Source of the DNA: Flavobacteriales bacterium
Lineage (GTDB): Bacteria > Bacteroidota > Bacteroidia > Flavobacteriales_F > PHOS-HE28
Assembly: GCA_046306055.1 (NCBI GenBank)
Contig: JBKDXR010000016.1
Location: 6,132 to 70,131 of the forward strand
DNA length: 64,000 bases
Direction: 5' to 3'
Shown here piece after piece: positions 8,406 to 40,967 of this stretch; positions within the stretch are counted from its first letter, which is position 1, and each line of letters begins with the position of its first letter. The translations under genes were made by a program, and so were the position numbers. Under the pieces are notes generated by a model that saw nothing but the letters and a program-made list of their open reading frames with translations, was not told where the DNA came from and ran no database searches.

Positions 8406-8476
8406 CGCGGCTTTCTAAGGGGCCGTGCCTTCCGGCAGGCGGGCCGCAAAGATAGCGGGACGGACCCGGACCGGCC

Positions 8477-20448: not shown

Positions 20449-22884
20449 CTACCGCAGCAGCGTCAGCGATCCCGTGAAGCGGTAGCTCCGGCCATCGCCC
20501 CCCTGCGCCTCCAGCACAAAATAGTAAGTGCCGCTGGGTGTCAGCTCGCCGGCATCGGTGCGCCCGTCCCAGGACTGGTCTGGTGCACGCAACTGGGCCA
20601 CCTGTTGCCCCCATCGGTTGAAGATCTGCGCATCGAGGCTGGAAAGGCCCACCGACCTCACGCCCCAGGTGTCGTTCTGGCCATCACCATTGGGGCTGAA
20701 CACGTTGGGCACGAAGATGTCGCTCACCACCACGGGGCTGTTCACCACCACCAGCAGGGTATCGCTATCGCTGCAGCCGTTGGCCGTTGCGGTCATCACC
20801 ACGGTGTAGATGCCGGGGTCGGTATAGACATGATCCGTGGTCGCACCGGTAAAGGCGGTGCCATCGCCCAGGTCCCATTGGAACGCGGCATCCGGAGGCG
20901 TCGACGTGTTGGTGAACAGCACCTCCAGGGGCGGATCGCCCACAAGTGGATCGCCACCGATGTCGGCCACCACGGTGGTCTCCACAACGGTGATCGAGGC
21001 ATTGTCCGTACCACAACCGCTCACTTCCACGGTGTAGGTGCCTCCGGCCGTGACCGTGATGCTTGGCGTGGTGGCCCCGGTGCTCCACAGGTATGCGGTG
21101 CCGCCGCTGGCGGTGAGCACAACGGGGGCGCCGGTGCATAGCGCATCAGGTCCGCTGATCTCCGCCTGGGTGGGCACCGGCTGGATGGTGGTGCTGGCCG
21201 AGGCCGTGCAGCCGTTGGCATCCGTTATGGTGACCTGGTAGCTGCCTTCCGCAAGGCCGGTGGCGGTGAGGGCCGTGCCCCCCGCAGGCGACCACAACTG
21301 CGTGTAGGGCGCGGTACCCCCGGAGGCCTGCACGGTGGCCGTGCCATCGGCGCCGCCGCAGGTGGTGGGCGTGGTGCCAGTGATGGTGGCCGACAGGGGT
21401 GGAGGCTGCGTGATCAGTACCTGGAAGCTGCCCGTGCAACCCTCGGCATCGGTGGCTGTCACCGTGTAATTGCCCGCGACCAGACCGCTCTGCTGCGGTC
21501 CTTGCAGGGCGCCGGGCGACCAGGTGAACGTGTAGGGCCCGGCGCCACCGGTGGCCTGTACCGTGGCGCTGCCGGTGCTGGCTCCATGACAGGCCACGTT
21601 GGTGCTTTGCACCAAGGTCACGATGATGTCCGGGCAGTTCGGGCAAGGCGCCAGGCCGGCGGGAGAGGCGATCTCCAGGGTGCTGCCCGCAGCATCCACC
21701 ACCCGCACCGGCAAAGTCGCGGGCGGGAGGATGCTGGCGCCGGTGGCGAAGGTGGTCCAGGTGGTGACGTTCACCGCGCAGCCCGGAGGGAGGAAGCAGG
21801 CGAAGAGGCAGGCGCTGCAATCCTGCGTGGTGGTCTGCTGCTGCCAGGTGTACGGCGCCAGCCCGTTGCTCACGTTCCAGCTGCCGTCGGCACCGATGCA
21901 CACCTCCATGGGTGCGCAGTTGCTCACGGCGATGACCACCGTGTCGCTGCCGCAGGGCAGGGTGTGCACCACGCTGTGCAGGCCGGGGCCCGCGAGTGCC
22001 GGGTCGAAGGCGCCGGCGTTGGGGGCACTGATGCCGGGGCCGCTCCAGGTGCCGCCGGGCGTGGCGGGCTGCAGCAGCACCGGCGCATCGGTGGTGCACA
22101 GCGGGGCCACGGGGGCGAACTCGGCGTTGCAGCAGGGCTGCGGCACCACGCTCACATCATCCACGAAGTAGTACGCGTAGGGGTTGAGGGCGGCCTCGTT
22201 CGCGCAGTTGTACGTGGTGGTGGCGTCAGCCCGGAAATTGCCGATGGTGATGTACTGCTCGCCGCCGGTGGCGGTGTAGTTCCACTGCAGGCGCTGCCAT
22301 TCTTCGGTATCGGTCACCTCCGGTCCGCTGTATTCCAATTGGGGCGTCACCGGCAGCACCGAAGAACCGCCGATGGTGGCGCAGCTCACGTTGAGCGGGA
22401 CAGAGGAGAAGTGTACCCCGATGTTGGGCGAGGAGAACTTCACATTGTCCGCAAGGCTCACATGGAACTCCACACAGTAGGTCTGACCGGCCACCATGGG
22501 CTGGGTGAGGCTGCCGTGGAGGTATTCGCGCCACCCGCTGCCGAAGAGGGTCTGGCAGCCCAGCAGGGCAAAGCCTTCGTATACGATGATGCCTGCATAC
22601 CCATCACCGGTGCGCGCCGGCTGGCTGCCCAGGATGTTGTTGGGCACCCCGACCCCGAATGCGCCAAAAGGGCTGCACGCATTATAGAGATCGGAGGTGG
22701 AGCAGGTGTCGCCCACCAGGTTCAGGAACGGATCGCGCCAGGGGGCGGCCTTGTCCAGTTCGCTCGGGCCCAGTGGGCAGGAGGTCACGGTCTCGAAGCT
22801 GGGGTTCACCACCAGGTTCTGCGCCCCTGCGAACAGGGGGAGGACCAGCGCGACCAGCGGTAGCAGGCGGAAAGGGGTGTTCAT
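20449..22884 (-). CDS. secreted T9SS substrate with SprB repeats, PKD domain and gliding-motility (type B) C-terminal domain
   Basis: start at MNTPFRLLPLVALVLPLFAGAQ (ATG 22884-22882); PKD motif FQWDLGDGTAF...HVYTDPGIYTVVMTATANGCSD; C-terminal IFVPNVFSPNGDGQNDTW...IFNRWGQQV. Confidence 0.85.
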   Translation of the reverse strand: MNTPFRLLPLVALVLPLFAGAQNLVVNPSFETVTSCPLGPSELDKAAPWRDPFLNLVGDTCSTSDLYNACSPFGAFGVGVPNNILGSQPARTGDGYAGIIVYEGFALLGCQTLFGSGWREYLHGSLTQPMVAGQTYCVEFHVSLADNVKFSSPNIGVHFSSVPLNVSCATIGGSSVLPVTPQLEYSGPEVTDTEEWQRLQWNYTATGGEQYITIGNFRADATTTYNCANEAALNPYAYYFVDDVSVVPQPCCNAEFAPVAPLCTTDAPVLLQPATPGGTWSGPGISAPNAGAFDPALAGPGLHSVVHTLPCGSDTVVIAVSNCAPMEVCIGADGSWNVSNGLAPYTWQQQTTTQDCSACLFACFLPPGCAVNVTTWTTFATGASILPPATLPVRVVDAAGSTLEIASPAGLAPCPNCPDIIVTLVQSTNVACHGASTGSATVQATGGAGPYTFTWSPGALQGPQQSGLVAGNYTVTATDAEGCTGSFQVLITQPPPLSATITGTTPTTCGGADGTATVQASGGTAPYTQLWSPAGGTALTATGLAEGSYQVTITDANGCTASASTTIQPVPTQAEISGPDALCTGAPVVLTASGGTAYLWSTGATTPSITVTAGGTYTVEVSGCGTDNASITVVETTVVADIGGDPLVGDPPLEVLFTNTSTPPDAAFQWDLGDGTAFTGATTDHVYTDPGIYTVVMTATANGCSDSDTLLVVVNSPVVVSDIFVPNVFSPNGDGQNDTWGVRSVGLSSLDAQIFNRWGQQVAQLRAPDQSWDGRTDAGELTPSGTYYFVLEAQGGDGRSYRFTGSLTLLR

Positions 22885-23011
22885 CGGTCGGAAAAGCCGT
22901 TCGTAGCCTTCCAAATGTAAACGAAAGGCCGTCGCGACCGCATGCCTTGTGGGCCGCCCCGGAACAGGACGGTGGACGACCTGCCAGCCTGCGGTTCCGT
23001 ATCCTTGATGC

Positions 23012-23308
23012 ATGAAACGCTACACCGCCTCCCGCCTCACGGCCGGGAACCGGCTCTTCCCTGCGCAGTTGGTGATCGACGACATGGGCGTGACCCTGCG
23101 CCAGCCCTCGCTGTTCAGCGGGAAGGAGACCTCCATTCCCTACACACGCATCGCGTCGGTGAACATCAGCTGCCCGGCGGTGGGCTATTCCAGCATCCAC
23201 ATCCACACCACGGGCGAGGGGATGATCAACGTGCACGGCTTCCTGCGCAGGGAGGTGGAAGAGATGAAGCGGACGCTGCTGGCCCGCATCAACGAGACCG
23301 AGCGGTGA
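23012..23308 (+). CDS. small hypothetical protein (98 aa, PH-like?)
   Basis: intact ORF divergent from the T9SS gene; no recognised motif. Confidence 0.4.
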   Translation: MKRYTASRLTAGNRLFPAQLVIDDMGVTLRQPSLFSGKETSIPYTRIASVNISCPAVGYSSIHIHTTGEGMINVHGFLRREVEEMKRTLLARINETER

Positions 23309-23759
23309 GGCTCCCGGCAGGGCGTGCGACCCCGCGTGAGCGGGCGTAGCGGCAGCCGACCGCAGGAGAAGCGATGGTGCCGCCCGAGCGAGGAGGCTGC
23401 GACGCAGGAGCAGACCCCGGAGCCGGTGCGGCACCCGCTGAGCCAAGGACGCTAAAGCGCAGCACGCGACGGCGCCTGCCACCTACGTTCTCCCAACGGT
23501 AAAGGCTCCAGGCGCCGGCACGCCCCTCACTTCGCCCTGTGCGTGATGACCGCACCTATCGCGAAGACCAGATGATCGGTCGATCAGACCATAGGCGCCG
23601 GCCTTATCGTTCTCCGGCCATGTCGCGATCCCGATGCGCCCCTCGTGCAGCACAGGCCGACACTCGGTCCATCTCATTGCCCGATCTTCTGATCCACACG
23701 TCCCCTGAACCTTCCCCCCGTTACATTTGTTCTTCCCCATGTCACCAGACCGAACGTCC

Positions 23760-25706
23760 ATGAGCCAGCCCACGCCCTCCTACCCGCTCCTGGAGCGCAT
23801 CACGCTTCCGGCCGACCTGCGTGCCCTGCCTGAGGAGCAACTGCAGCAGGTCTGCACCGAGCTGCGCGACTTCATCATCGACGTGGTGAGCGTGAAGGGT
23901 GGCCACTTCGGCGCCAGCCTCGGCGTGGTGGAACTGACCGTGGCCCTGCACTACGTGTTCAACACCCCCTACGACCAGCTGGTGTGGGATGTGGGTCACC
24001 AGGCCTACGGGCACAAGATCCTCACCGGCCGCCGCGAGGTGTTCCATACCAACCGCATCTACAAGGGCCTCAGCGGCTTCCCCAAGCGCAGCGAGAGCAC
24101 CTACGACACCTTCGGCGTGGGGCATAGCAGCACCAGCATCGGTGGCGCGCTGGGCATGGCCGTGGCCAGCAGGCTGAAAGGTGAGCAGGACCGCCAGTGC
24201 GTGGCCATCATCGGCGATGGTGCCATGACCGCCGGCCAGGCCTTCGAAGCGCTGAACCATGCGGGCGGCGCCGGCACGGACATGCTGGTGGTGCTCAACG
24301 ACAACTGCATGAGCATCGACCCGAACGTGGGCGCGCTCAAGGAATATCTGACCGACATCGCCACCAGCCACACCTACAACAAGGTGAAGGACGAGGTGTG
24401 GAACCTGCTGGGCAAGGTGAGCAAGTTCGGCCCCAACGCGCAGGCCATCGTGCAGAAGGTGGAGCATGCCGTGAAGGGCGCACTGCTCAAGCAGAGCAAC
24501 CTCTTCGAAAGCCTCAACTTCCGCTACTTCGGCCCGGTGGACGGACACGATGTGGACCACCTGGTGAAGGTGCTGAAGGACCTGCGCGACATCCCCGGTC
24601 CGAAGATCCTGCACACGATCACCAAGAAGGGTAAGGGCTACGGACCTGCTGAAGCAGGCAGCCCCACGGTGTGGCACGCTCCGGGCCTCTTCAACAAGGA
24701 GACCGGCGAGATCATCAAGGTGGTGCCCAAGAGCCCGCAGCCACCGAAGTACCAGGACGTATTCGGCCACAGCATCGTGGAGCTGGCCGAGAAGAACCCG
24801 AAGATCGTAGGGGTGACCCCCGCCATGCCTTCGGGCTGCTCGCTCAACATCATGATGAAGGCCATGCCCGATCGCGCTTTTGACGTGGGCATCGCCGAGC
24901 AGCATGCCGTTACGTTCAGCGCCGGGATGGCCACGCAGGGCCTGGTGCCCTTCTGCAACATTTATAGCTCGTTCATGCAGCGGGCCTACGACCAGGTGGT
25001 GCACGATGTGGCGCTCCAGAACCTCAATGTGGTATTCTGCTTGGACCGCGGCGGTCTGGCCGGTGCCGACGGCCCCACACACCACGGCAACTTCGACTTC
25101 GCCTACTTCCGCTGCATCCCCAACATGGTGGTGAGCGCGCCGATGAACGAAGAGGAATTGCGCGACCTGATGTACACCGCCCAGCTGCCGGACCAAGGCC
25201 CCTTCAGCATCCGCTACCCGCGCGGCGAGGGCGTGATGACCGAGTGGAAGACGCCCTTCAAGGCGATCAAGGTGGGCACGGGCCGCAAGCTGCGCTCCGG
25301 CACCGACATCGCAGTGCTCAGCATCGGTCACATCGGCAACCTGGCCGCCAAGGGCATCGACGCACTGGAGGCAGAAGGCTACAGCGTGGCGCACTACGAC
25401 ATGCGATTCGTGAAGCCCATCGACGAGCTGCTGCTGCACGAAGTGTTCAGCAAGTTCAAGCACGTGGTCACCGTGGAGGACCACGGCCTGCAGGGTGGCA
25501 TGGGCAGCGCAGTGCTGGAGTTCATGGGCGACCACGGATACGCCGCCCACGTGAAGCGCCTGGCGATCCCCGACAAGTTCATCGAACACGGCACACAGGC
25601 GGAACTCTACCGCGAATGCGGCATCGATGCCATCGCGGTGGTGGAGGCGGTGAAGGAACTTCTTGGTGAGAAGGGTGCGAAGAAGGAGGTGAGGGTGAGC
25701 GCGTGA
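23760..25706 (+). CDS. dxs: 1-deoxy-D-xylulose-5-phosphate synthase
   Basis: TPP-binding GDGAxT motif (IIGDGAMTAGQAFEALNHAG) and full-length Dxs architecture; start aligned on MSQPTPSYPLLERI (alternative upstream starts at 23727/23739); last 16 codons lie beyond the 119-bp repeat. Confidence 0.95.
   Translation: MSQPTPSYPLLERITLPADLRALPEEQLQQVCTELRDFIIDVVSVKGGHFGASLGVVELTVALHYVFNTPYDQLVWDVGHQAYGHKILTGRREVFHTNRIYKGLSGFPKRSESTYDTFGVGHSSTSIGGALGMAVASRLKGEQDRQCVAIIGDGAMTAGQAFEALNHAGGAGTDMLVVLNDNCMSIDPNVGALKEYLTDIATSHTYNKVKDEVWNLLGKVSKFGPNAQAIVQKVEHAVKGALLKQSNLFESLNFRYFGPVDGHDVDHLVKVLKDLRDIPGPKILHTITKKGKGYGPAEAGSPTVWHAPGLFNKETGEIIKVVPKSPQPPKYQDVFGHSIVELAEKNPKIVGVTPAMPSGCSLNIMMKAMPDRAFDVGIAEQHAVTFSAGMATQGLVPFCNIYSSFMQRAYDQVVHDVALQNLNVVFCLDRGGLAGADGPTHHGNFDFAYFRCIPNMVVSAPMNEEELRDLMYTAQLPDQGPFSIRYPRGEGVMTEWKTPFKAIKVGTGRKLRSGTDIAVLSIGHIGNLAAKGIDALEAEGYSVAHYDMRFVKPIDELLLHEVFSKFKHVVTVEDHGLQGGMGSAVLEFMGDHGYAAHVKRLAIPDKFIEHGTQAELYRECGIDAIAVVEAVKELLGEKGAKKEVRVSA
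25539..25657. repeat. 119-bp direct repeat, copy 1 (inside dxs 3' end)
   Basis: identical base-for-base to 33002-33120. Confidence 0.95.
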
Positions 25707-25727: not shown

Positions 25728-26684
25728 TCATTCCTTTTTCACGTCCAACAGTTGAGATAGCTTTGCGTACTTAAGGTCTTTTTGGGCGGCCTTCGTGGAA
25801 CCGTACCCCTCTGGACTAACCGCCCACCGATAGAGAGCTTCTCTGTATTCGAATTCCATCTTGGCAAGGGTTGCCCCACGCCTGAAATTGTAGGCTGAAG
25901 CGCTCGGTGCTGACCCTGAGGTTCTGTTGAATCTTTCGAAGCCGCGCTTCGCATAGCCAAATGGATCCTTGTCCTCGTTGATCAAAGCCTGCTGCAGGAG
26001 GACCGCGATCTTCTCGAGATCTCGATAGTTCCCTGCCAATGGCAAGCTGTCGAGCCATGTATTGAAAGCTGAGGCATCGACCGGGATGGACTGCTTGAAG
26101 AGCATGTTCTTCCAGACAGTAGCGAAGGCTGCTGAGGGTTTCACCTCTTGCTCTTGCACCGAAGGCAGATACAATCCGAGCTGATTGATGCGGTCGAAGA
26201 GGTCCGGCAGAAGCATCTTCTCCAACTCCTCAACAGTCCTATTGGAAGCGAAGACGGGTTGAAAGCGCGCGAATTCTTCGCTATCCGACCCTACCCGGCG
26301 GAAGCGATACCATCCGTGCGTGCCCTTGTGATTAACTGTTTGCAGGGCCGTCATGAGCTTCTCCTGCACCCGCTTATTGAGGTTGTGGATCTCATCGAAG
26401 AAGAGCATGCCGGATTTGTTTGCTTCATGGAACAAGCCGGACTTATTGGAGACCGCCCCTGTGAACGCACCTTTTACGTGACCGAATAGCTCACTGAGCG
26501 CCATGGTGTCCCCTTCGACACTTGCACAGTTGAAGTATGTGGGTGGTCCTTTTAGCACCTTTTCACCGACCTCGTTGATCATCTTGGACTTCCCGATACC
26601 ACGGGCTCCGAGCACTAGGACTGAGAATCGGCCGGGGTTCTTGAAGAAGCTCTCCAGTTCGGCTTCTATTTTGTTAATGGGCAT
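25728..26684 (-). CDS. sigma54-interaction-domain AAA+ ATPase (bEBP-like, no receiver domain)
   Basis: Walker A GARGIGKS; GAFTGA loop in HVKGAFTGAVSNKSGLFHEANKSGMLFFDEIHNL; LAGNYRDLEKI matching the bEBP WPGNVRELEN box; possible degenerate C-terminal HTH (GSTKAAQKDLKYAKLSQLL); start at MPINKIEAEL (ATG 26684-26682). Confidence 0.8.
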   Translation of the reverse strand: MPINKIEAELESFFKNPGRFSVLVLGARGIGKSKMINEVGEKVLKGPPTYFNCASVEGDTMALSELFGHVKGAFTGAVSNKSGLFHEANKSGMLFFDEIHNLNKRVQEKLMTALQTVNHKGTHGWYRFRRVGSDSEEFARFQPVFASNRTVEELEKMLLPDLFDRINQLGLYLPSVQEQEVKPSAAFATVWKNMLFKQSIPVDASAFNTWLDSLPLAGNYRDLEKIAVLLQQALINEDKDPFGYAKRGFERFNRTSGSAPSASAYNFRRGATLAKMEFEYREALYRWAVSPEGYGSTKAAQKDLKYAKLSQLLDVKKE

Positions 26685-26703
26685 GATGTAAATATATCGT
26701 AGT

Positions 26704-26718
26704 GATGATAATATCATC
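26704..26718. promoter_or_regulatory. 15-bp palindrome gatgat-aat-atcatc in the divergent intergenic region (candidate UAS/operator)
   Basis: near-perfect dyad ~80-90 bp upstream of the sigma54-like element at 26799 and just upstream of the ATPase start. Confidence 0.35.
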
Positions 26719-26798
26719 TCGATAGATTTTCCGCCAAATGGCATAAGCCGCTCAAATCCAACAGACTATCTATGGCTCACGTGTTGGACGAAAGGTCT

Positions 26799-26812
26799 TG
26801 GCACGGCTTTGC
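26799..26812 (+). promoter_or_regulatory. sigma54-like -24/-12 element (TGGCAC-N4-TTGC; spacing one nt shorter than consensus)
   Basis: tggcacggctttgc about 30 nt upstream of the DUF4258 ATG and beside a bEBP-type ATPase gene; GG-N9-GC rather than the canonical GG-N10-GC. Confidence 0.3.
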
Positions 26813-26843
26813 TAATAGGAGGGTGCAACAAGTTCCCCAGCCC

Positions 26844-27137
26844 ATGCAACCCCACATCATCGTCCCCAGCCTGCACGCCGTGCAACGAGCCTACGAGCGT
26901 GGTATCACCACACCCATGATCCAAGACACCCTTCGGTGGGGGAAGAAACTCCACCGCCAAGGGCTGCGCTTCTTCGTCATGCTTCGCTGCTGCATCCCAC
27001 CCGGCTTGGATGAACGCTATGCGAAGCAATTGGTGAATGTGACCGTGGTGCTCGGCGGTGATGAGACCATCGTCACGGTGTACCGCAACCCGAAGGCTAT
27101 AGCCCACATCAAGCGCAAACCCAAGCGACTCCTATGA
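26844..27137 (+). CDS. DUF4258-family small protein (RelE/toxin-like fold)
   Basis: MQPHIIVPSLHAVQRAYERGIT matches the H-A-x-x-R-M-x-E-R-G-I signature of DUF4258; stop overlaps the next ATG (ATGA); an upstream in-frame ATG at 26772 is possible. Confidence 0.6.
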   Translation: MQPHIIVPSLHAVQRAYERGITTPMIQDTLRWGKKLHRQGLRFFVMLRCCIPPGLDERYAKQLVNVTVVLGGDETIVTVYRNPKAIAHIKRKPKRLL

Positions 27138-28414
27138 GGATCCTCAAGATCATCCATGGCTACCCTCCACTGTATAGCGCAGGGTCGGAGGTCTACAGCC
27201 AGAGCACCTGTGACCAGCTCGCGAAACATCACGAGGTGCTGGTGTTCACCCGCGAGGAGAATCCTTTCGCGCCAGACTTTTCGTTGCGGCGCGTAAAGGG
27301 GGAGAGCGGACCCAAGCGCGTCCTGGTGAACATGCCGCGCGGCAAGGATGGGTATCGCCACAAGGAGTTGGACGAGCGCTTCGCCGAGGTGCTCCGTTCG
27401 TTCGGTCCGGATGTGGCGCACATTAGCCATCTCAATCATCTGTCCACCGGCATCGTGGATGTGCTCAAGGAGGCTGGCATTCCCATCGTGTTCACCCTGC
27501 ACGACTTCTGGCTGATGTGCCCGCGCGGGCAGTTCTTGCAGCGCAATTTCGGAGGAGGTGTGGTGCATGCCCTGTGCGATGGCCAGGAGGACCGCAAGTG
27601 CGCCACATCGTGTTACGCATCCCTGATGTCCGGTGAAGAAGGCCAACATGAGCGTGACGAAGACTATTGGACAGCATGGATCCACCAGCGCATGCGCGCG
27701 TCCAAGCGCCTCTCTGAAAGCGTGGACCGGTTCATCGCCCCATCGCGCTACCTTATGGATCGCTTCATCCGCGACTTCGGACTGCCCGCTGAGAAGGTCA
27801 TGCACCTGGACTATGGCTTTCCGGTCCACTACCTGACGCCATCAGTGAAACGCACACCATCCGACAAGTACCGCTTCGGCTACATCGGCACGCACATCCC
27901 GGCAAAAGGGGTCAACCTGCTTCTTGAAGCATTCGATGGGTTGGGCGATGCGGCCGAGTTACACATTTGGGGCGCCAAGGATGAGCAAAGCACCCGAGCG
28001 TTGCGGAGCATGGCGGACGGCAAAGTCGGAATCCACTTCCATGGTCCGTATGTCAATCACAACCTGGCCAACGAGGTTTTCGCAGTAGTGGACTGCATTG
28101 TGGTGCCGTCCATCTGGATGGAGAACTCACCCTTGGTGATCCACGAGGCCCAGGCCTGTCATATCCCCGTGATCACAGCGAACGCCGGGGGTATGGCCGA
28201 GTATGTAGCGCACCAGGTGAACGGTCTGCTTTTCCAGCATCGCTCGGCGGTCGACCTGCGCCATTGGATGCGCTGGGCGGTGGAGCATCCACATACCATG
28301 AAGCAACTCGGCGAGCGCGGCTATCTCCATGTGGCTGACGGTGCCATTCCGGACATCGAAGAGCACTGCAAGGCACTCGAAAACATGTACACCAACCTCA
28401 TTAGCAGACCATGA
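27134..28414 (+). CDS. glycosyltransferase family 4 (GT-B, group 1)
   Basis: 426 aa; C-terminal E-x7-E motif (ENSPLVIHE) and GT4 Rossmann repeats; 4-nt overlaps at both ends. Confidence 0.8.
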   Translation: MRILKIIHGYPPLYSAGSEVYSQSTCDQLAKHHEVLVFTREENPFAPDFSLRRVKGESGPKRVLVNMPRGKDGYRHKELDERFAEVLRSFGPDVAHISHLNHLSTGIVDVLKEAGIPIVFTLHDFWLMCPRGQFLQRNFGGGVVHALCDGQEDRKCATSCYASLMSGEEGQHERDEDYWTAWIHQRMRASKRLSESVDRFIAPSRYLMDRFIRDFGLPAEKVMHLDYGFPVHYLTPSVKRTPSDKYRFGYIGTHIPAKGVNLLLEAFDGLGDAAELHIWGAKDEQSTRALRSMADGKVGIHFHGPYVNHNLANEVFAVVDCIVVPSIWMENSPLVIHEAQACHIPVITANAGGMAEYVAHQVNGLLFQHRSAVDLRHWMRWAVEHPHTMKQLGERGYLHVADGAIPDIEEHCKALENMYTNLISRP

Positions 28415-29433
28415 GCACATTCTGGCGGATCACCCTGGATACTAATCCAGAGGATTGCAACCTGAGCTGCACCATGTGCGAAGAGCACAGTGAGTTCAGC
28501 GATTTCATGCAACGCTTGTACGAGCGCACAGGCGTCAAGCGACGGCGCATGCCTTTCGACATGGTGCAGAAGGTGATGGAGCAGGCCGCTGCAATGGGTG
28601 TGCGTGAGATCATCCCGTCCACCATGGGCGAACCACTTCTCTACCGGCAGATGGATGAGCTGCTGGAGTTGGCCAAGGAGCTTGGCATGAAGGTGAATCT
28701 GACCACCAATGGCACCTTTCCGAAGCGCTCTGTGGAGGATTGGGCGGAGCGCATCGTGCCGGTCACTTCGGATGTGAAGATCTCGTGGAACGGCGCTACC
28801 AAGGAAACGACGGAAGCTGTGATGAAGGGCCTGAAGTTCGAGCAGGCCATCGCCAATGTGGAGCGCTTCATAGCGGTACGTGATGCACACCATGCAGCTA
28901 CAGGGCACTACTGCCGGGTGACCTTCCAGCTTACCTTCATGCAGAACAATATGCACGAGTTGCCGGATATCATCGCGCTCGCTGCAAGGCTTGGTGTGGA
29001 TCGTGTGAAGGGCCATCATCTCTGGGCACATTTCGAGGAGATCCAGCACCTGAACTTCAAGGCATCCGCCCAGACGATCGATCGTTGGAACGACATCGTG
29101 GATCTGGCCGTGGCCGCTGCCGCGAAACACCCGAGGCACGATGGAACACCTGTCCTGCTGGAGAATATCACTCCCCTGTTGCCACAGAATGGCCATGCGG
29201 TTCCCCACACCCACGAGTGCCCTTTCCTGGGCAAAGAGCTTTGGGTTTCTGCTACGGGCGACATCTCTCCCTGCTGCGCGCCGGACGACCTGCGGCGATC
29301 GCTGGGAGACTTCGGCAATGTGAGCGAACGGAGCCTAGCCGAGGTGGTGGCCGATGAAGCATACCAAGACCTGATGCGGGACTACCGCGACCGGCCGCTT
29401 TGTAGCACCTGCAACATGCGCAAGCCATGCTGA
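28411..29433 (+). CDS. radical SAM enzyme with SPASM/twitch-like C-terminal cysteine cluster
   Basis: CNLSCTMC (CxxxCxxC) radical-SAM motif at residues 16-23; C-terminal CPFLGKELWVSATGDISPCC ... CSTCNMRKPC auxiliary Fe-S cysteine pattern. Confidence 0.8.
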   Translation: MSTFWRITLDTNPEDCNLSCTMCEEHSEFSDFMQRLYERTGVKRRRMPFDMVQKVMEQAAAMGVREIIPSTMGEPLLYRQMDELLELAKELGMKVNLTTNGTFPKRSVEDWAERIVPVTSDVKISWNGATKETTEAVMKGLKFEQAIANVERFIAVRDAHHAATGHYCRVTFQLTFMQNNMHELPDIIALAARLGVDRVKGHHLWAHFEEIQHLNFKASAQTIDRWNDIVDLAVAAAAKHPRHDGTPVLLENITPLLPQNGHAVPHTHECPFLGKELWVSATGDISPCCAPDDLRRSLGDFGNVSERSLAEVVADEAYQDLMRDYRDRPLCSTCNMRKPC

Positions 29434-29951
29434 AAGTGCTGCTATTCGGCAATCTGGGGTCCGGCAAAAGCCATCTGGCCGAGCGGTTCATACAGCGCCA
29501 CCCGATCTACGAACACGTTGCCATTGATGCCTTCCGAAGGACCCACGGCGATGGAACCATGGCCGGGGAGCGCACCGCCAAGGAATGCTTCATCCTCAGC
29601 GTCCTTCCCGGTATGCCACAACTCATCGAAGCCACTGGACTTGGCGAGACCGGAGTGCTCTTGGCGGAACGACTGGATGCCATGGAAGAGCACATGCTCA
29701 TCGTGCTCCTGACCACTCCGCTTGAACGCTGTTTGACCCGACTCGAGCAGAGGATCTGGGACGTGCCTTATCCCGCACCTCCAGAGGAAGCCTTGGAGCT
29801 TGCCCGGAGGACCGATGCGTTCATAAAGGCGGGAGAAGTGGAAATGATCTGGGACAGGGCGGGGAGGACGCAACTGATCAAAGGGGATTGCTCCGATGAG
29901 CGATCCATGAACGAACTGCTGGAACGAATGGAACACCACCTGCTGAAATGA
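29427..29951 (+). CDS. small P-loop NTPase/kinase
   Basis: Walker A GNLGSGKSHL at the N-terminus; 174 aa, size and layout of shikimate/gluconate/nucleoside-kinase-like P-loop kinases. Confidence 0.65.
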   Translation: MLKVLLFGNLGSGKSHLAERFIQRHPIYEHVAIDAFRRTHGDGTMAGERTAKECFILSVLPGMPQLIEATGLGETGVLLAERLDAMEEHMLIVLLTTPLERCLTRLEQRIWDVPYPAPPEEALELARRTDAFIKAGEVEMIWDRAGRTQLIKGDCSDERSMNELLERMEHHLLK

Positions 29952-31360
29952 AACACCACAAGATCATCACCCAAGTCGAACAACGTATCGCCGCATTGGA
30001 CGGTATCGAGGCCGCCGTGCTCTATGGTTCGGTAGCAAGGGGCGAAGCGACCCCGAACTCGGACATCGACCTTGGCATCATCGTCAATGATCGGTTCGAT
30101 CGGGATGCGTTGATCGAGGCCTTTAAGGGCATGGAGCTTCAACCGGACCATGTGATGCCGGTATCGATGCGCAACAAGGTCGTTGCCTATTTCCAGGATA
30201 TGCGCATCAAATTGGAGGTGGCACTTCATCATGACCTGGCATCCTTTGGCCGCGACCTCTCAGGCTCGGTCATTCCGGAGCACCTGCTGCCCAATGCTGT
30301 GCTGCTGGACCGAACAGGCACTCTGGTGCAGCGCATCCTCGACATGAACGGCTCGGGATACAAGCCCTACTCCGTAGAGGAACTCGTGCAGAAGTTCATC
30401 TACGAGTTCGACAATCTGTCCACCTTCCACCGCCGGAGCGACGGTTACCGGGCACTCTACTTTCATCAGATCGCGCTGCATTGCCTGGTGCAACTGATGA
30501 ACATGCGCAGTAACGGCGACCGGTTCCAGTTCCTGCCCCGCAACCTGTTGGTGAACATCAAGGACAAGGAGCAGCTGCGCCGCATTTACGAGCTGAACGG
30601 ATCCATGTATCTGCCGGACATGAACCGCAAGAAGCGCGCGCTGCTGGACATGCTCTATGCCACGCTCGCAGAGTTGGCTTATCCTGAGTTGGATGAAGTA
30701 CGCTTGGTGTTGGAACGCATCTACGACAGGGACCGGCATTGGAACCTGCGTAGTGTAGGTACGCATGGCCCCATGATACGTTGGCCGAATCTGTTGCGAA
30801 GCAGCCTGCCCGCGATCATGCAGCCGGACGTATTGAGTGATCTGCTGGAGCGGAATGCAGTACACACCATCATCGACCTGCGCGCACCTCGTGAACTGGA
30901 AGAGCATCCATACGCAGAGGATGCAATATCCAATGTGCGGTATGTGCATGCGCCGTTCGACCCGTGGGCCCAACCCGATTGGTTCAAGGAGCCGGAATTC
31001 CAGCAGGGCGAGCACCAGGAGATCGCGTACCGCTTCTTTGCATTGGGCTGTCGACAGAGCATCAAGGACATCGTGGACGCGCTCATCGATGTTCCCGAGG
31101 ACATGGGCGCCATCATCCATTGCCATGCGGGGAAGGACCGGACCGGCATTGTCTGCACCTTGCTTCACCTGTTGGTCGGCGCTGAAATGGAAGATGTGAT
31201 GACCGACTACCTCGCCAGCGAATCGGACACCTATGCGCACAACCTGCAAGTGGTGCTCGATGTCATTGAACGCCAAGGGGGCATCCGGGCATACCTCGGC
31301 AACTGTGGTCTGAGCGATGCCCAGATCGATCGACTTCAACAACGCCTGAGCCATGGCTGA
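29948..31360 (+). CDS. fusion protein: minimal nucleotidyltransferase (pol-beta superfamily) N-terminal domain + protein-tyrosine/dual-specificity phosphatase-like C-terminal domain
   Basis: GSVARGEATPNSDIDLGII (GS...DxD NTase motif) at residues 27-45; C-terminal HCHAGKDRTG (CX5R phosphatase P-loop). Confidence 0.75.
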   Translation: MKHHKIITQVEQRIAALDGIEAAVLYGSVARGEATPNSDIDLGIIVNDRFDRDALIEAFKGMELQPDHVMPVSMRNKVVAYFQDMRIKLEVALHHDLASFGRDLSGSVIPEHLLPNAVLLDRTGTLVQRILDMNGSGYKPYSVEELVQKFIYEFDNLSTFHRRSDGYRALYFHQIALHCLVQLMNMRSNGDRFQFLPRNLLVNIKDKEQLRRIYELNGSMYLPDMNRKKRALLDMLYATLAELAYPELDEVRLVLERIYDRDRHWNLRSVGTHGPMIRWPNLLRSSLPAIMQPDVLSDLLERNAVHTIIDLRAPRELEEHPYAEDAISNVRYVHAPFDPWAQPDWFKEPEFQQGEHQEIAYRFFALGCRQSIKDIVDALIDVPEDMGAIIHCHAGKDRTGIVCTLLHLLVGAEMEDVMTDYLASESDTYAHNLQVVLDVIERQGGIRAYLGNCGLSDAQIDRLQQRLSHG

Positions 31361-32306
31361 GCGACCTGAGCAACTCTTCACCGGATACTGGCGCTACCTG
31401 GCCGTCCGGGCCGCCTGCAAACTGGACCTGTTCGAGCATATCGCTGCAGGGGTGCGCACTGTGCCGGGCCTTTGTGCTGCCATTTCCTGCGATCAGCGCT
31501 CCCTGGATAGCCTTGTTGGTGCGCTGGTCCATGAAGAATACCTGTTGCATAGCGAGGAGGGCCTGCGGCTATCTCTGGAAGCCCAGCGGCTTTGTGCTGG
31601 CCATCCTACTAGCGTGAAACATGCCTGCCTGCTGTGGGGTGCAGAGCACATGGATGCCTGGCAACACCTTGACGAAAGCATCCGATCGGGACAGCCGGTT
31701 TTCACGAAGCTGTTCGGCGACACCTTCTTCCGCTACTTGGACGGGCATCCAGAACGGGCCGTGGAGTATCACAGGGCCATGTTCGAATACGCGCGGCAGG
31801 ACTATGCGGGGATCGGTGAGGTCTTGGACCTATCAGCACACCGGTCGGTCATGGATGTTGGAGGTGGCAATGGGGCGCTGGTCGGGTGCTTGAGGGCAGG
31901 TCATCCGGGGGTGTCCTTCCGAATCTTCGACATCCAGGACCACCGCACAGATCATTCGCGGGATATTCTGTTCATCCAAGGCGACTTCTTCAACGCGGTT
32001 CCTGAAGGTTCGGATGCCTTGCTACTCAGCAGGGTGATCCATGATTGGGATGATGCGCAGGCGTTGCAAATACTCCGGAATTGTCACTCCGCACTACCTC
32101 GGGAGGGGGCCCTTTTCCTCATCGAGAACGACCTGTCAATGCTCGCCGACGGTGGACATCTGCTGTCGCTGAACATGCTGGCCACCTGCGGTAGTCGGGA
32201 GCGCAGCGTGCAGGAATATCAACAACTGCTGGAAGGCTCCGGATTCCGGGTCCAAGGTCTTGTCCACCATGGAAATCAGGCGATCATCAAAACTGTACGC
32301 GCATGA
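31353..32306 (+). CDS. class I SAM-dependent O-methyltransferase (small-molecule OMT family 2)
   Basis: VMDVGGGNGALV SAM-binding motif I; N-terminal dimerisation-like region; ~320 aa; no DNA-MTase DPPY/NPPY motif. Confidence 0.8.
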   Translation: MAERPEQLFTGYWRYLAVRAACKLDLFEHIAAGVRTVPGLCAAISCDQRSLDSLVGALVHEEYLLHSEEGLRLSLEAQRLCAGHPTSVKHACLLWGAEHMDAWQHLDESIRSGQPVFTKLFGDTFFRYLDGHPERAVEYHRAMFEYARQDYAGIGEVLDLSAHRSVMDVGGGNGALVGCLRAGHPGVSFRIFDIQDHRTDHSRDILFIQGDFFNAVPEGSDALLLSRVIHDWDDAQALQILRNCHSALPREGALFLIENDLSMLADGGHLLSLNMLATCGSRERSVQEYQQLLEGSGFRVQGLVHHGNQAIIKTVRA

Positions 32307-32998
32307 ACTGGCATGATATCAAACCCTCCTTGGACGGTGCGCACTTCCTTCTCGGGGGACAACCGATCTGGATCGACCGCTTCATGGCCGTTATGTCCTT
32401 CCATGCTCCTGGCGTGGCACCCGTACAGGATGTTTCCGGTTGGTACCACATTGATGCAGAAGGTTGTCCCTTGTACAAAGCGCGCTACCACAAGGCCTAT
32501 GGCTTCTATTGTGACCGTGCAGCGGTCAAGGACAAGACAGGTTGGTTCCACATCGACCTTAACGGCGATGCGTGCTATCCTGAGCGCTACGCGTGGTGCG
32601 GCAATTTCCAAGAGAATTGCTGCGCTGTACGGTCATCGGATGGATACCATCATATCGATCCGTTAGGCCGGGCGCTGTATGCGGAACGCTGGCAATACGC
32701 TGGGGATGCGCGGGATGGGGTCATTTGTGTGCAAAGCGCCGGAGAGGCCTTCCACATCCGCAAGGATGGGAGCAAGCTGTACCCGGCGACCCATCGTTTC
32801 GTGCATGTGTTCCACAAGGGCTTCGCCGTTGCGTTAGACACGTTGGGTTGGTGCCATATCGACCGATCGGGACAACCCATCCATGCGCATCGCTTCCAGT
32901 ACTTGGAGCCGTTCTACAATGGTGTGGCGGTAGCGATCGATGGGGAGGGTCGGAACGTGATGGTCAATGAGGTGGGTGAGGTGACCTTGTTGGGATAG
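32303..32998 (+). CDS. WG-repeat protein (about five ~45-aa repeats with conserved GW-[HY]-I-D)
   Basis: repeats GWYHIDAEG, GWFHIDLNG, GYHHIDPLG, AFHIRKDG, GWCHIDRSG; stop codon lies 3 nt before repeat copy 2. Confidence 0.65.
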   Translation: MNWHDIKPSLDGAHFLLGGQPIWIDRFMAVMSFHAPGVAPVQDVSGWYHIDAEGCPLYKARYHKAYGFYCDRAAVKDKTGWFHIDLNGDACYPERYAWCGNFQENCCAVRSSDGYHHIDPLGRALYAERWQYAGDARDGVICVQSAGEAFHIRKDGSKLYPATHRFVHVFHKGFAVALDTLGWCHIDRSGQPIHAHRFQYLEPFYNGVAVAIDGEGRNVMVNEVGEVTLLG

Positions 32999-33290: not shown

Positions 33291-34413
33291 GATTCAACTC
33301 ATAAACGCAATCGGATAGACTGACAGGAGAGCTGATGATTTCTTCAGGAGGAGGAGAGGCTTTTACCCCTCGATCCCCGCTGAATGGAGGATGCGGCCTA
33401 CCCTTGTTCTGGGGTCCAATCCGTTGCAAGAATGAGCCACATCACCGATGAGCAAAGGTGCATCATACAACGCATGAAGAAGGCCGGTCATCAGCAGAAG
33501 CGGATCGCCGAGGCCATTGGCAAGTCCGAGTCGGCGGTGAGCCGCGAGATCAGGCGCAACTGCGACCAGCGCAGCGGCGCGTAGAACGCTGACCTGGCTG
33601 CCCGCAAGAGCGCGCAGCGCAAGAAGGACAAGCCCAAGGCGGTGCGCTTCACCGCTGCCATTCGCGCTAAGGTGGAACGGCAACTGGCCCAGAAGCTCAG
33701 CCCGGAGCAGATCGTGGGCGTTGCCGTGCGCGCGGGCCGCGACATGGTCTCCCATGAGCGCATCTATCAGCATATCTGGCAGAACAAGAAGTGCGGCGGC
33801 CACCTGCACGAGCGCCTGAGCACGCGCGGTAAGCCCTACCGCAAGCGAGGCGCGGCCAAGGACAGCAGAGGCATCATCAAAGACCGGGTGGGCATCAATC
33901 AGCGGCCCACAGTGGTTGAGAGGCGCAAGCGGTTCGGCGACCTGGAGATGGACACGATCATAGGTCGCAAGCACAAGGGCGCCATCGTCACGATCAACGA
34001 CCGCGCCAGCGGGATTCTATTGATGCGCAAGGTGCCCCGCAAGGAATCTGGTCTGGTGGCCCAGGCCGCTATCGAAGCGCTGCGCCCTTGGAAACCGCTG
34101 CTGCACAGGGCCACCAGCGACAACGGGAAGAAGTTCGCCGATCATCAGCTCATCGCCCGCAAGCTCCAGTTGGACTTCTTCTTCGCCAAGCCCTACCATA
34201 GCTGTGAGCGCGGCTCCAACGAGAACCTCAACGGCCTCATCCGCCAGTACATCCCCAAGCAGACCGATTTCGACACCCTCACCGATGAGTTCATCCAGTA
34301 CGTCCAAGACCAGATCAACAGCCGACCAAGGAAACACTTCATCTTCGACACCCCGAGCAACGAGTTCAACCGACTAACCCGATGACCCAGCGATTGCGTT
34401 TATGAGTTGAATC
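33291..34413 (+). mobile_element. IS30-family insertion sequence (1123 bp)
   Basis: perfect 23-bp terminal inverted repeats gattcaactcataaacgcaatcg (33291-33313) and cgattgcgtttatgagttgaatc (34391-34413); internal DDE transposase; possible 2-bp CG target duplication. Confidence 0.85.
33432..34385 (+). pseudogene. IS30-family transposase interrupted by an in-frame TAG (33582-33584)
   Basis: HTH part (MSHITDEQRCIIQRMKKAGHQQKRIAEAIGKS...) and DDE catalytic part (MRFTAAIRAK...) are in the same frame, separated only by one TAG codon. Confidence 0.75.
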
Positions 34414-35366: not shown

Positions 35367-36089
35367 ATGGCTGCGCTGCTCACCACCATCGCCAGGACCT
35401 TTCTAGCGAAGGGGCGTTTGGTCTCCGTTCAGCCGTTGAACGCGGTAGCAACGCATATCGTGCTTTGCCCCGAGCATAGGGGCCTCTGCAACGTTCGGGC
35501 TGGTTCGCAACTCGGGATCTGGACGCACGAATACGGCACAGGCGTGGGTGATGCTCGGCGCACCTATAGCGTATGGCAGTGCGACAGGCACAGCGGTGAT
35601 CTCCATTTAGCCCTTTGCCACCTCTCCGAAGGTCCTGGTCAACATTGGGCGCGAAATGTCGTTGCTGGAGATGAGGTGCTCTTCTCCAAACCGGAAGTGA
35701 AGTTCGGCTTGGCGGATGCAGCGCTGCCGGCGGTCTATATCGGTGATACGTGCGCACAGTATCATCTCTATGCGCTCCGTCGTGGGTTGCTTGCCAGCGC
35801 ACCCGGTTCCGGCATTGTTCACGCCGATGCGCCTGACCACGTTTTCTCGGACCATGAGGGGTCAACGCCTTTCGCCACGCTGGTGCAACCCGAATGGGTG
35901 GTTGACGCGTTGATCGACCGGATCGAGCACCTCGGCACGACGCGGCACGCCAACACTGTATTGCACATCACCGGTGAAGCAGGTGTCGTCAAGGCCCTGC
36001 ACGATCACCTCTATCGCAACCTCGGCATACCCCAGGCACGGATAACAGCCAAGGCGTTCTGGAAACCAGGCAGGACGCGTATGGAATAA
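35367..36089 (+). CDS. siderophore-interacting protein (ferric-siderophore reductase, FAD-binding 9/SIP family)
   Basis: 240 aa; R-x-Y-S/T motif (RRTYSVW) and SIP C-terminal region; stop overlaps the TonB receptor start (TAATG). Confidence 0.7.
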   Translation: MAALLTTIARTFLAKGRLVSVQPLNAVATHIVLCPEHRGLCNVRAGSQLGIWTHEYGTGVGDARRTYSVWQCDRHSGDLHLALCHLSEGPGQHWARNVVAGDEVLFSKPEVKFGLADAALPAVYIGDTCAQYHLYALRRGLLASAPGSGIVHADAPDHVFSDHEGSTPFATLVQPEWVVDALIDRIEHLGTTRHANTVLHITGEAGVVKALHDHLYRNLGIPQARITAKAFWKPGRTRME

Positions 36090-39458: not shown

Positions 39459-39956
39459 CGGACTCCGAACGCGGCCGCCACGAACATCACGGGCTTCTCC
39501 GCGATCCCCAACGGTGGCCGCAACCCGGAAGGGCGGTTCTCCTTCAGTTATGATGCGGCTGCGAGCTACTGGTTATCCACCCTGGCAGGCCCCGGCATGG
39601 GGTTCTTCCTCGAACTGGCCTATCCGCAGGACATGGCGGTCCGGAACGCCTACTTCGCTGATTATGCCGCTTGCATACGCTGTGTCGTCGATGTGAGCAC
39701 GCTGGACATCAGCGACCTTAACGTTCCGGACATGGACATCCACCCGAATCCGACGAACGGGTCCATTGTGGTGCAGGCCGGCTCATCAATGCTCGGTGAG
39801 CGTTACGAGATCGTCGATCTCATGGGCCGCTCGATCCTTCAGGGCACGCTCGTTTCCACCCAGGCGACGATCTCGCTGGAGCAGTTCCCGGCCGGGATGT
39901 ATCTCATGCGCTTCCCGGAGCGGAAAGGACCCGCGATGAAGATCGTGAAGGAGTAG
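39459..39956 (+). pseudogene. remnant of a T9SS substrate: C-terminal Por/type-A sorting domain only
   Basis: open frame begins right after a stop at 39456-39458; C-terminal DIHPNPTNGSIVV...YEIVDLMGRSI...AGMYLMRF...KIVKE is a Por secretion tail; no signal peptide or cargo domain. Confidence 0.6.
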
Positions 39957-40094: not shown

Positions 40095-40967
40095 GTGCGC
40101 GATTACTTTCGGGTCATGGACATTCGCACCGTGCTGCACGACGCCGGGCTGGCGAGCGAGCTCCGCGTGTCCACCGTGATCGGTGCGGAGCTGCCGCTGA
40201 ACTATGCGGCGCTGTCGATCAAGCACGTGATCCAGGGGGAGGAGCGCTACCGGGTGCGGGGCCGCCTGCGCACCGTACGTGCCGGCGAGCACCTGCTGAT
40301 CCAGGGCGGTGGCGCGGGCGAGGTGATCATCGGCCCGCACGAGGCCCGCGGCATCTGCGTGGACATCGGGGCGCCGATGCTGGCCGAGGTGGTGCGGCAC
40401 CATGCGCAGTTCGATGACCACGTGGAGCAGCGCCTGCTGCAGGCCGACTACTTCGATGGCGAGCGCGCGCCCCTGGGCCGGCGCACCACGGCGGTGCTCA
40501 CCGCACTGGCCGTTGGCGCCACCGCGCTGGACGCATCGCTCTTCCACGGCCTTGCCGAGGCGGTGCTGCTGGACCGGCTCGACTGGCACGGCCTTGCCCA
40601 GCGGCTCCGGGCCCGCAAGCAGGGCACGCAGCGCGAGACCGTGCGCAAGCTGCTCCTGGCCAGGGCGGCCTTCGATCGCGACCCGCTGGCCTTCCCCACC
40701 GCCCGGGAGCTGGCCGTGGCGCATGGCTTCTCCGAGTTCCACTTCAGCCGGGCCTTTGCCGCGGTGTTCGCCCTTTCACCCTATGCGTACATGCTGCAGC
40801 AGAGGCTTGATGAGGCGCACCGCCTTCTGGTGCTGGGTGGACGTCCCGTGGCGGAGGTGGCGCTGGACTCCGGCTTCAACGATGCGGCCACCTTCAGCCG
40901 CGCCTTCAAGCGGCAACATGGGCGGCCGCCCTCGTCGTTCATTGATCGGGCAAGGATGGTCAAGTGA
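40095..40967 (+). CDS. AraC-family transcriptional regulator
   Basis: C-terminal HTH_18 region (ELAVAHGFSEFHFSRAFAAVF...ALDSGFNDAATFSRAFKRQHG). Confidence 0.85.
   Translation: MRDYFRVMDIRTVLHDAGLASELRVSTVIGAELPLNYAALSIKHVIQGEERYRVRGRLRTVRAGEHLLIQGGGAGEVIIGPHEARGICVDIGAPMLAEVVRHHAQFDDHVEQRLLQADYFDGERAPLGRRTTAVLTALAVGATALDASLFHGLAEAVLLDRLDWHGLAQRLRARKQGTQRETVRKLLLARAAFDRDPLAFPTARELAVAHGFSEFHFSRAFAAVFALSPYAYMLQQRLDEAHRLLVLGGRPVAEVALDSGFNDAATFSRAFKRQHGRPPSSFIDRARMVK

Follow-up and report, generated by a model that had tools for sequence, protein, structure and literature searches.

Locus and regulator gene

The window analysed here, a whole stretch of 64,000 nucleotides from a Flavobacteriales bacterium, carries on its minus strand the gene of a sigma-54 activator (bacterial enhancer-binding protein, bEBP) devoid of a sensor domain and, head-to-head with it, a plus-strand run of seven genes at 26844-32998, hereafter the cassette, whose starts and stops overlap (Table 1). 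The original prediction, made from the letters of the window, held that the cassette had brought its own sigma-54-dependent switch; comparison with related loci, denoted below by L numbers, shows that regulator and cassette occur together in unrelated genomic contexts, and makes control of the cassette by this activator probable.

Regarding the limits of the two divergent genes, the minus-strand open reading frame (ORF) of the regulator is open to 26744 (25728..26744, 338 aa); the ATG at 26684 (MPINK..., 318 aa) is with near certainty its start, because nearly all homologues, mostly 309-320 aa long, begin at that position, and because the 20 extra codons up to 26744 are missing from L092/L167; in L165 unrelated sequence takes their place. 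The start of the first operon gene was set at 26844 (97 aa) by gene callers on the near-identical contigs L001/L002, and not at 26772, the choice of the ORF finder. With both starts taken, the divergent intergenic region measures 159 bp, in agreement with the 160 bp first described; at its other end the regulator ORF lies tail-to-tail with dxs (23727..25706).

Family, motifs and fold of the regulator

As for its family, the regulator scored 93.5 bits with Pfam Sigma54_activat (PF00158), whose cut-off is 20.2, and its best NCBIfam models were RtcR (108.5 bits), NorR (98.5) and NifA (81.9), all far below the equivalog cut-offs. The PADLOC profile RtcR_PspF1--CARF_AAA_HTH matched with 180 bits over positions 182-455 of 468, namely the AAA+ domain and the C-terminus; positions 1-181, the CARF part, were unmatched, the protein beginning about 20 residues before Walker A, and the ORF list held no separate gene for a CARF-type domain in the intergenic region. 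A phmmer search against PDB sequences returned sigma-54 activators only (NifA, NtrC1, FleQ, FlrC, ZraR, LuxO, PspF). The AlphaFold model, built on a 23-sequence family alignment, had a mean pLDDT (per-residue confidence) of 87.7 and consisted of an AAA+ fold followed by C-terminal helices; in Foldseek against the PDB its top 50 matches were all sigma-54 activators, the best being NtrC1 (1ny6, E 1e-14). The bEBP identity first proposed is borne out by these searches, and the profiles place the protein among sigma-54 activators and not in another AAA+ clade.

The motifs on which that identity had been based are present as well: Walker A, the GAFTGA loop and, as the WPGNVRELEN-like box, the sensor II sequence LAGNYRDLEKI, to which Walker B (FFDEI) and the arginine-finger region (DLFDRIN) can be added. 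GAFTGA is exact in 38/58 cassette-linked relatives and replaced by near-variants in most others, and across the family the catalytic and L1 motifs show little or no variation; judged by its sequence, the regulator is a bEBP with a complete sigma-54-interaction AAA+ domain.

After the AAA+ domain, the model places C-terminal helices at residues 273-289, 297-304 and 309-313. The sequence of this segment, LAKMEFEYREALYRWAVSPEGYGSTKAAQKDLKYAKLSQLL, resembles by eye the NtrC/Fis-type pattern L..E.EYI..AL....G....AA..LGISR.TL.RKL; the relative L008 has HTH_28/HTH_23 matches at the equivalent place, and the CARF_AAA_HTH alignment reaches position 455 of 468, near the end of the profile. In the model, the segment is likely a DNA-binding domain.

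The cassette and its linkage to the regulator

Metagenome loci were searched with the cassette proteins of the window, and among the non-redundant loci with at least 3 kb of upstream sequence, 34 of 35 had the glycosyltransferase (GT4) and radical-SAM genes on the strand opposite to the regulator and within 5 kb of it; the label of orphan, given at first to the regulator, had to be dropped. The cassette shared by these loci comprises a protein of about 100 aa, a GT4 glycosyltransferase, a radical-SAM/SPASM enzyme, a nucleotidyltransferase-phosphatase, usually an O-methyltransferase, and a WG-repeat protein. A 99%-identical copy of the regulator, with the same neighbours, occurs in the Flavobacteriales metagenome-assembled genome (MAG) GCA_046306115.1, and relatives at 76-87% identity have the same operon at the same dxs locus; those at about 45% identity lie in unrelated contexts, next to phage integrases, a type I restriction-modification system, RteC, GmrSD and AIPR genes, and are still divergent from a protein of about 100 aa, a fused GT4/radical-SAM-SPASM protein, a 477-aa nucleotidyltransferase/Y_phosphatase3 and a WG-repeat protein of about 232 aa. 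The idea that the cassette brought its own switch gains from this linkage, which is kept in unrelated contexts, integrase and defence islands included; from its gene content and distribution, the cassette (26844-32998 in the window; also L088-L091 and L100-L161) is a conserved, horizontally mobile unit. Its proteins had weak PADLOC matches only, it is often found in integrase or defence islands, and no description of the cassette or of its association with the regulator was found in the literature searched.

The small first gene is positionally conserved in loci with short and with long forms of the regulator. Its product in the window matched DUF4258 with 18 bits, below the cut-off; by hhalign it was related to one group of first-gene proteins from other loci (probability 73%, E 3e-5), and this group in turn to the majority type (probability 99%).

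Relatives of the regulator and loss of the CARF domain

Regulator relatives were collected in two scans. The first, of representative genomes with a full-length family alignment, gave 80 loci, nearly all ordinary bEBPs because the back-translated patterns were generic Walker A/B boxes; L008 alone carried the cassette, and L009-L012 scored above the generic bEBPs. The second, of metagenomes with an alignment specific for the C-terminus, added 70 loci. A search of a plasmid collection found distant generic bEBPs only.

Most cassette-linked regulators are about 600 aa long, with an N-terminal extension of about 275 residues; these long forms match PADLOC CARF_AAA_HTH from position 45-90 onward with 236-276 bits, and L008 has a faint match to Pfam RtcR (CARF) as well. 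A rough neighbour-joining (NJ) tree groups the cassette-linked regulators in one clade, with the canonical 477-aa RtcR_PspF1 proteins as its sister group, and the clade of the window, together with AT-rich short forms (L088-L098), makes up one sub-clade nested among the long forms. Since this sub-clade is nested among CARF-bearing proteins, the loss of the sensor is derived, and the regulator of the window is, as far as sequences tell, a derived CARF-less RtcR-like activator. The absence of a receiver or sensor domain had been recognised correctly from the start; to this is now added that it reflects a loss, the relatives having mostly an RtcR-type CARF-like N-terminus. The likeness to PspF and RtcR as a constitutive activator stands only in part: it holds as regards the missing sensor, but RtcR itself is not constitutive, only its CARF-less form is, this being constitutively active in vitro and repressed by CARF supplied in trans (PMC9650030).

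Two side observations concern these relatives. The long-form regulators (L100-L161, e.g. L113:5762-7579, L116:5762-7573, L008:7083-8927) have, besides the CARF-like region, about 100 extra N-terminal residues. The 477-aa relatives belong to an operon of an SF1 helicase (AAA_11/AAA_12), a 374-aa protein of no assigned function and a PLDc_2 nuclease, followed by the regulator; from its gene content, it looks like a separate defence-type system.

The dyad and other intergenic elements

The 15-bp dyad described at 26704-26718 is present exactly there, with arms of 7 nt that are 100% complementary; it lies 20-34 bp upstream of the start codon of the regulator, and its centre is 88 bp upstream of TGGCAC, inside the range of 80-150 bp expected of an activator site. 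Its core, ATGATAATATCAT, is invariant in 5/6 loci of the subclade, with two changes in L002, in intergenic DNA that is 60% identical on average; in L092/L167 there is a second copy of the dyad 19 bp away. At this place, just upstream of the regulator start, the dyads of other sub-families differ in sequence, being of the type TGTAAG-N-CTTACA in the AT-rich short forms and with AAAGGTA...TTCCTTT repeats in the long forms. A dyad whose sequence changes between sub-families at a fixed place is as expected if the regulator co-evolves with its own site, and its proposed role as upstream activating sequence (UAS) is strengthened by these comparisons.

Between UAS and promoter, several loci (e.g. L104, L105, L108, L116) have an IHF-like element, WATCARNNNNTTR / TTGAnnATCAA, placed 20-70 nt upstream of TGGCA; WATCARNNNNTTR occurs within 70 nt upstream of TGGCA in 21/49 loci, 1.1 being expected. 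The layout of the rtcBA promoter is likewise UAS, IHF and promoter (PMC9650030).

Other candidates in the region were set aside or add little. The inverted repeat TCCAACA/TGTTGGA at 26757-26788 is not conserved in L002 and so was not retained as an element. A further TGGCAT on the plus strand (26735-26740) precedes the main element by 64 nt; it is not accompanied by anything like a -12 and reads TGACAT in L002. A scan for sigma-70-type promoters gave a minus-strand TTGGCG-18-TATTAT at 26737-26708, with its -10 inside the dyad, a weak hint at autoregulation of the regulator; such matches are no more frequent in the region than by chance, and the consensus used differs from that of Bacteroidota. 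Finally, an Rfam search of 26500-27000 gave no match.

The promoter element

The element TGGCAC-N4-TTGC is found at the exact place first proposed: TGGCACGGCTTTGC, at 26799-26812 on the plus strand, starts 88 bp from the centre of the dyad (about 85 bp in the earlier estimate) and its end is separated by 31 nt from the ATG at 26844 (about 30 nt). For its comparison, 58 non-redundant related loci were oriented with the operon from left to right, and the zone 30-260 nt from the regulator start was read. TGGCA[CT] occurred on the operon strand in 49/58 loci and on the other strand in 4/58; in random control windows of the same loci the frequency was 11%. When a base matrix was anchored on TGGCA in these 49 loci, the unanchored positions had T at -27 (38/49), a purine at -20 (44/49) and -19 (38/49), T at -15 (46/49) and -14 (25/49), G at -13 (28/49), C at -12 (13/49), and A or T at -11 (38/49). 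The pattern corresponds to the canonical sigma-54 register, TGGCAY-N5-TTGCW, except that the C at -12 is weak, and six loci (L008, L106, L107, L111, L136, L151) have a fully canonical TGGCAY-N5-TTGC. The register of the matrix and the strand specificity of TGGCA therefore point, at the level of sequence conservation, to an operon promoter of the sigma-54 type in the family. Counted from the T of TGGCA, the start of the first ORF lies 40-47 nt downstream in most loci and 45 nt downstream in the window.

Table 1. Coordinates of the features at the locus, with the evidence for each
Feature	Position	Strand	Basis
Sensor-less bEBP gene, 318 aa (AAA+ sigma-54 interaction domain and C-terminal helical tail)	25728..26684	-	sequence, homologue starts, profile and structure matches
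C-terminal three-helix segment, residues 273-313, presumed helix-turn-helix (HTH) DNA-binding domain	25746..25868	-	AlphaFold helices, CARF_AAA_HTH profile coverage
GAFTGA L1 loop, sigma-54 contact motif	26454..26471	-	read from sequence
Walker A GARGIGKS	26586..26609	-	read from sequence; GxRGxGK[ST] conserved in family
Possible second degenerate dyad copy ATGATGTAAATATATCG, overlapping regulator start codon; low confidence	26683..26699	.	about 9/15 positions match, by reading
15-bp perfect dyad GATGATA-A-TATCATC, presumed activator binding site (UAS)	26704..26718	.	sequence; subclade conservation
Sigma-54-type promoter element TGGCAC-GGCT-TTGC (GG-N9-GC, one base below canonical)	26799..26812	+	sequence; conservation in relatives
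Predicted transcription start, leader of about 20 nt	26824..26825	+	inferred from -24 GG and -12 C, canonical sigma-54 geometry
First operon gene, 97-aa small protein, weakly DUF4258-like	26844..27137	+	gene callers, weak profile match
GT4 glycosyltransferase (also GT4-conflict match)	27134..28414	+	profiles; start overlaps preceding stop
Radical-SAM/SPASM enzyme; fused to GT4 in distant loci	28411..29433	+	profiles, related loci
Small P-loop kinase-like protein (AAA_33); some loci only	29427..29951	+	profile
Nucleotidyltransferase fused to Y_phosphatase3 tyrosine-phosphatase-family domain	29948..31360	+	profiles, related loci
O-methyltransferase	31353..32306	+	profiles; usual but not universal in related cassettes
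231-aa WG-repeat protein, last conserved cassette gene	32303..32998	+	profiles, related loci

Proposed mechanism and alternatives

The reading that we consider probable as a whole is that of a minimal bEBP of the RtcR clade that has lost its CARF domain and activates the cassette from its own UAS and sigma-54 promoter. Its C-terminal helical domain would bind the ATGATAATATCAT dyad, and possibly also the adjoining degenerate copy; the protein would assemble as an AAA+ ring, whose GAFTGA loops would contact RNA polymerase-sigma-54 about 88 bp away at the TGGCAC element; ATP hydrolysis would then open the promoter, and transcription would begin near 26824 and run through the seven translationally coupled genes. 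Binding to the dyad would probably also autoregulate the regulator, as in PspF, because the dyad lies so close to its start codon. Like RtcR-delta-CARF, the regulator would be intrinsically active; since it has no sensor in cis, its control would have to come from its expression level or from a partner acting in trans, and one might speculate, by analogy with PspA, that the small first-gene product is such a partner, with the role of an anti-activator.

Several results weigh against this reading. The six-frame translation of the 64-kb window contains no RpoN box, hence no rpoN, and the window has no other bEBP or other sigma-54-like promoter; a point in favour of the reading is that sigma-54 regulons have been predicted in Flavobacteriia in general (PMC12316311). 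The C-terminus of the regulator had no match to Pfam HTH_8, and hhalign of the family C-terminus with Fis was not significant, so that the HTH assignment depends on the AlphaFold model and the extent of the profile alignment. The IHF-like WATCARNNNNTTR is not recognisable in the intergenic region of the window, and the 477-aa RtcR_PspF1 relatives (L162, L163, L164; gene 7001-8434) are the last gene of an operon and not divergent from a target. As for the promoter, the -12 GC stands in the canonical register in only 11/49 loci; in the window, the bases at -14 to -12 in that register read GCT and not TGC. The spacing GG-N9-GC, with TT(G/T)C one base closer, is found in the window, L002, L092/L167 and L168, and the -12 region varies within the subclade (TTTGCT, GTTGCA or GTTTCA, and in L165, whose spacer is one base longer, TTCTC). 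The -24/-12 geometry proposed for a bEBP-driven promoter is backed by the strand-specific TGGCA, the register of the matrix and the six canonical loci; against it, the -12 GC is poorly conserved family-wide.

This short spacing and the variable -12 GC, together with the loss of the sensor domain, would suit a true bEBP whose promoter has been crippled or re-purposed: the one-base deletion would block the sigma-54 closed complex, the operon would be transcribed mainly from an unrecognised housekeeping promoter of the Bacteroidota -33/-7 type, and the activator would be vestigial, or else a repressor or autoregulator. In the classical view GG-N10-GC is nearly invariant and generally regarded as strict, reportedly on the ground of classical nifH deletion work. 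However, the short spacing is kept across lineages at 76-81% protein identity while the spacers differ (GGCT, GGAG, AGCG), and TGGCA and the following TT, though not the GC, are invariant in the subclade of the window, which argues for selection and not for decay; moreover, the ATPase and GAFTGA residues are all intact, no Bacteroidota-type TAnnTTTG is conserved downstream of the element by reading of the related loci, and 5-7 nt are allowed between TGGCAC and TGC (PMC12316311), 5 being present in the window. The spacing one nucleotide below canonical, already remarked in the original prediction, is real and no reading error; on comparison of its relatives, it is an inherited and maintained feature of the lineage, and we consider a crippled promoter unlikely. 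A different role for the protein itself, that of a working component of the cassette, such as an ATP-driven remodeller or a sensor in a conflict system, with the upstream elements serving another regulator, would be in keeping with the closest larger family, the 477-aa RtcR_PspF1 proteins, being co-directional with their helicase/unknown/PLD-nuclease operons, with the altered L1 loops of a minority of the family (GAFTDA, GSYTDA, GVFTG), and with the frequent location of the cassette in defence or mobile islands. It is nevertheless very unlikely: the regulator gene is divergent from the cassette and never inside it, the position-conserved dyad differs in sequence between sub-families in the manner of a co-evolving DNA-binding protein, TGGCA is strand-specific and lies 40-47 nt before the first ORF, and the majority of the cassette-linked proteins keep GAFTGA exactly.

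It should be noted that the window by itself would say little about its two DNA elements: 0.29 matches to TGGCAC-N4-TTGC are expected per window by chance, and 7-bp hairpins are, by estimate, common in 160 bp. A second match, TGGCACGGCCTTGC at 40584-40597 on the plus strand, has 13/14 bases identical and was judged a chance occurrence, being inside an AraC-family gene (40095-40967); element and dyad could both be of this kind, without any regulatory role. They are set above chance by their conservation in related loci, with TGGCA invariant in the subclade, the dyad core kept in all but one of its six loci although the surrounding intergenic DNA has diverged, and the enrichment of TGGCA on one strand; such family-wide conservation effectively refutes an origin by chance, which is hardly credible.

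Genomic surroundings and significance

Regarding the surroundings of the cassette, G+C over about 25.7-39.5 kb is 0.53-0.60 and in the flanks 0.61-0.69; a gene fragment with an rve integrase core (33642-34385, plus strand) lies just beyond the cassette, and what follows on that far side is not the same in the window as in its close relatives L002 and L168, a pattern compatible with an insertion hotspot beside dxs. Elsewhere in the window there are an adhesin with a CHU_C/gliding-type C-terminal domain (20449-23013, minus strand), a CarboxypepD_reg TonB-dependent receptor (36089-38464, plus strand) and a Por_Secre_tail protein (39597-39956, plus strand); by their families, these three mark the host as a member of the Bacteroidota, in agreement with the 99% match to the Flavobacteriales MAG.

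Few sigma-54 activators lack a sensor, the textbook cases being PspF and HrpR/S, and it is only of late that RtcR-like ones have been suggested to switch defence loci. Neither a bEBP without a sensor nor an RtcR-like switch at a mobile or defence locus is new in kind; the new details are this clade with its lost CARF, the constant pairing with an uncharacterised cassette, and the maintained N9 spacing. The CARF-less sub-clade is a natural experiment on the control of a bEBP after loss of its cis sensor, and regulator, UAS and promoter make up a compact, portable module for Bacteroidota. Inducible expression offers a handle on the function of the GT4/radical-SAM/nucleotidyltransferase-phosphatase cassette, and GG-N9-GC with a weak -12, if functional, bears on how strict sigma-54 promoter geometry is outside Proteobacteria.

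As for what the cassette does, a proposal that we make tentatively, and regard as doubtful in its full form, is that regulator and cassette constitute a conflict or stress system not yet described, mobile by horizontal transfer and gated by sigma-54, whose enzymes would make or modify a nucleotide- or peptide-derived product (glycosylation, radical-SAM chemistry, nucleotidylation/dephosphorylation, methylation). The trigger, damaged RNA ends or cyclic oligonucleotides, would in most bacteria act through an RtcR-type CARF sensor; the place of this lost sensor might be taken, in the clade of the window, by a trans partner, e.g., the DUF4258-like protein, and the weak, one-base-short -12 might be tuned to that control.

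Comparison with known systems

PspF of E. coli is a sensor-less AAA+-HTH bEBP that is divergent from its target, has its UAS in its own promoter region and is autoregulated; PspA, the first product of the operon, inhibits it in trans. This geometry recurs in the window, where the first gene encodes a small protein. The window differs in that the PspF model (TIGR02974) gave 68.3 bits against a cut-off of 443.55, below the RtcR, NorR and NifA models, and in that its operon has no PspA-like gene, the first-gene protein being DUF4258-like instead.

RtcR of E. coli and Salmonella, a CARF-AAA+-HTH protein that controls the rtcBA RNA-repair operon, is the best-scoring named family with both NCBIfam and PADLOC. 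The cassette-linked long forms keep its type of CARF-like N-terminus, the layout of UAS, IHF-like site (in the relatives) and -24/-12 element is as in the rtcBA promoter, and in domain content the protein of the window equals RtcR-delta-CARF (PMC9650030). The regulator is nonetheless CARF-less and its 108.5 bits stand against an equivalog cut-off of 650 (NF038308); the operon has, in place of rtcA/rtcB, glycosyltransferase, radical-SAM, nucleotidyltransferase-phosphatase and methyltransferase genes, and its -12 spacing is one base short. The 477-aa RtcR_PspF1 CARF_AAA_HTH proteins (PADLOC PDLC01994), the sister clade in the rough NJ tree, share the AAA+ domain and C-terminus with the regulator, but are full-length with CARF (503 bits) and close SF1-helicase/unknown/PLD operons.

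Finally, in Type II CoCoNuT loci a CARF-ATPase-HTH homologue of RtcR heads a mobile conflict-type array, of which it is the proposed inducer (Bell et al. 2024, PMC11090510), and small RelE/BrnT-like proteins are encoded immediately upstream of the array (PMC11090510), a parallel to the DUF4258-like first gene of the window. The CoCoNuT regulators, however, keep CARF and are co-directional with their array, whereas that of the window is divergent and CARF-less, and the cargo of the window consists of biosynthetic-looking enzymes and not of McrBC/HEPN nucleases.

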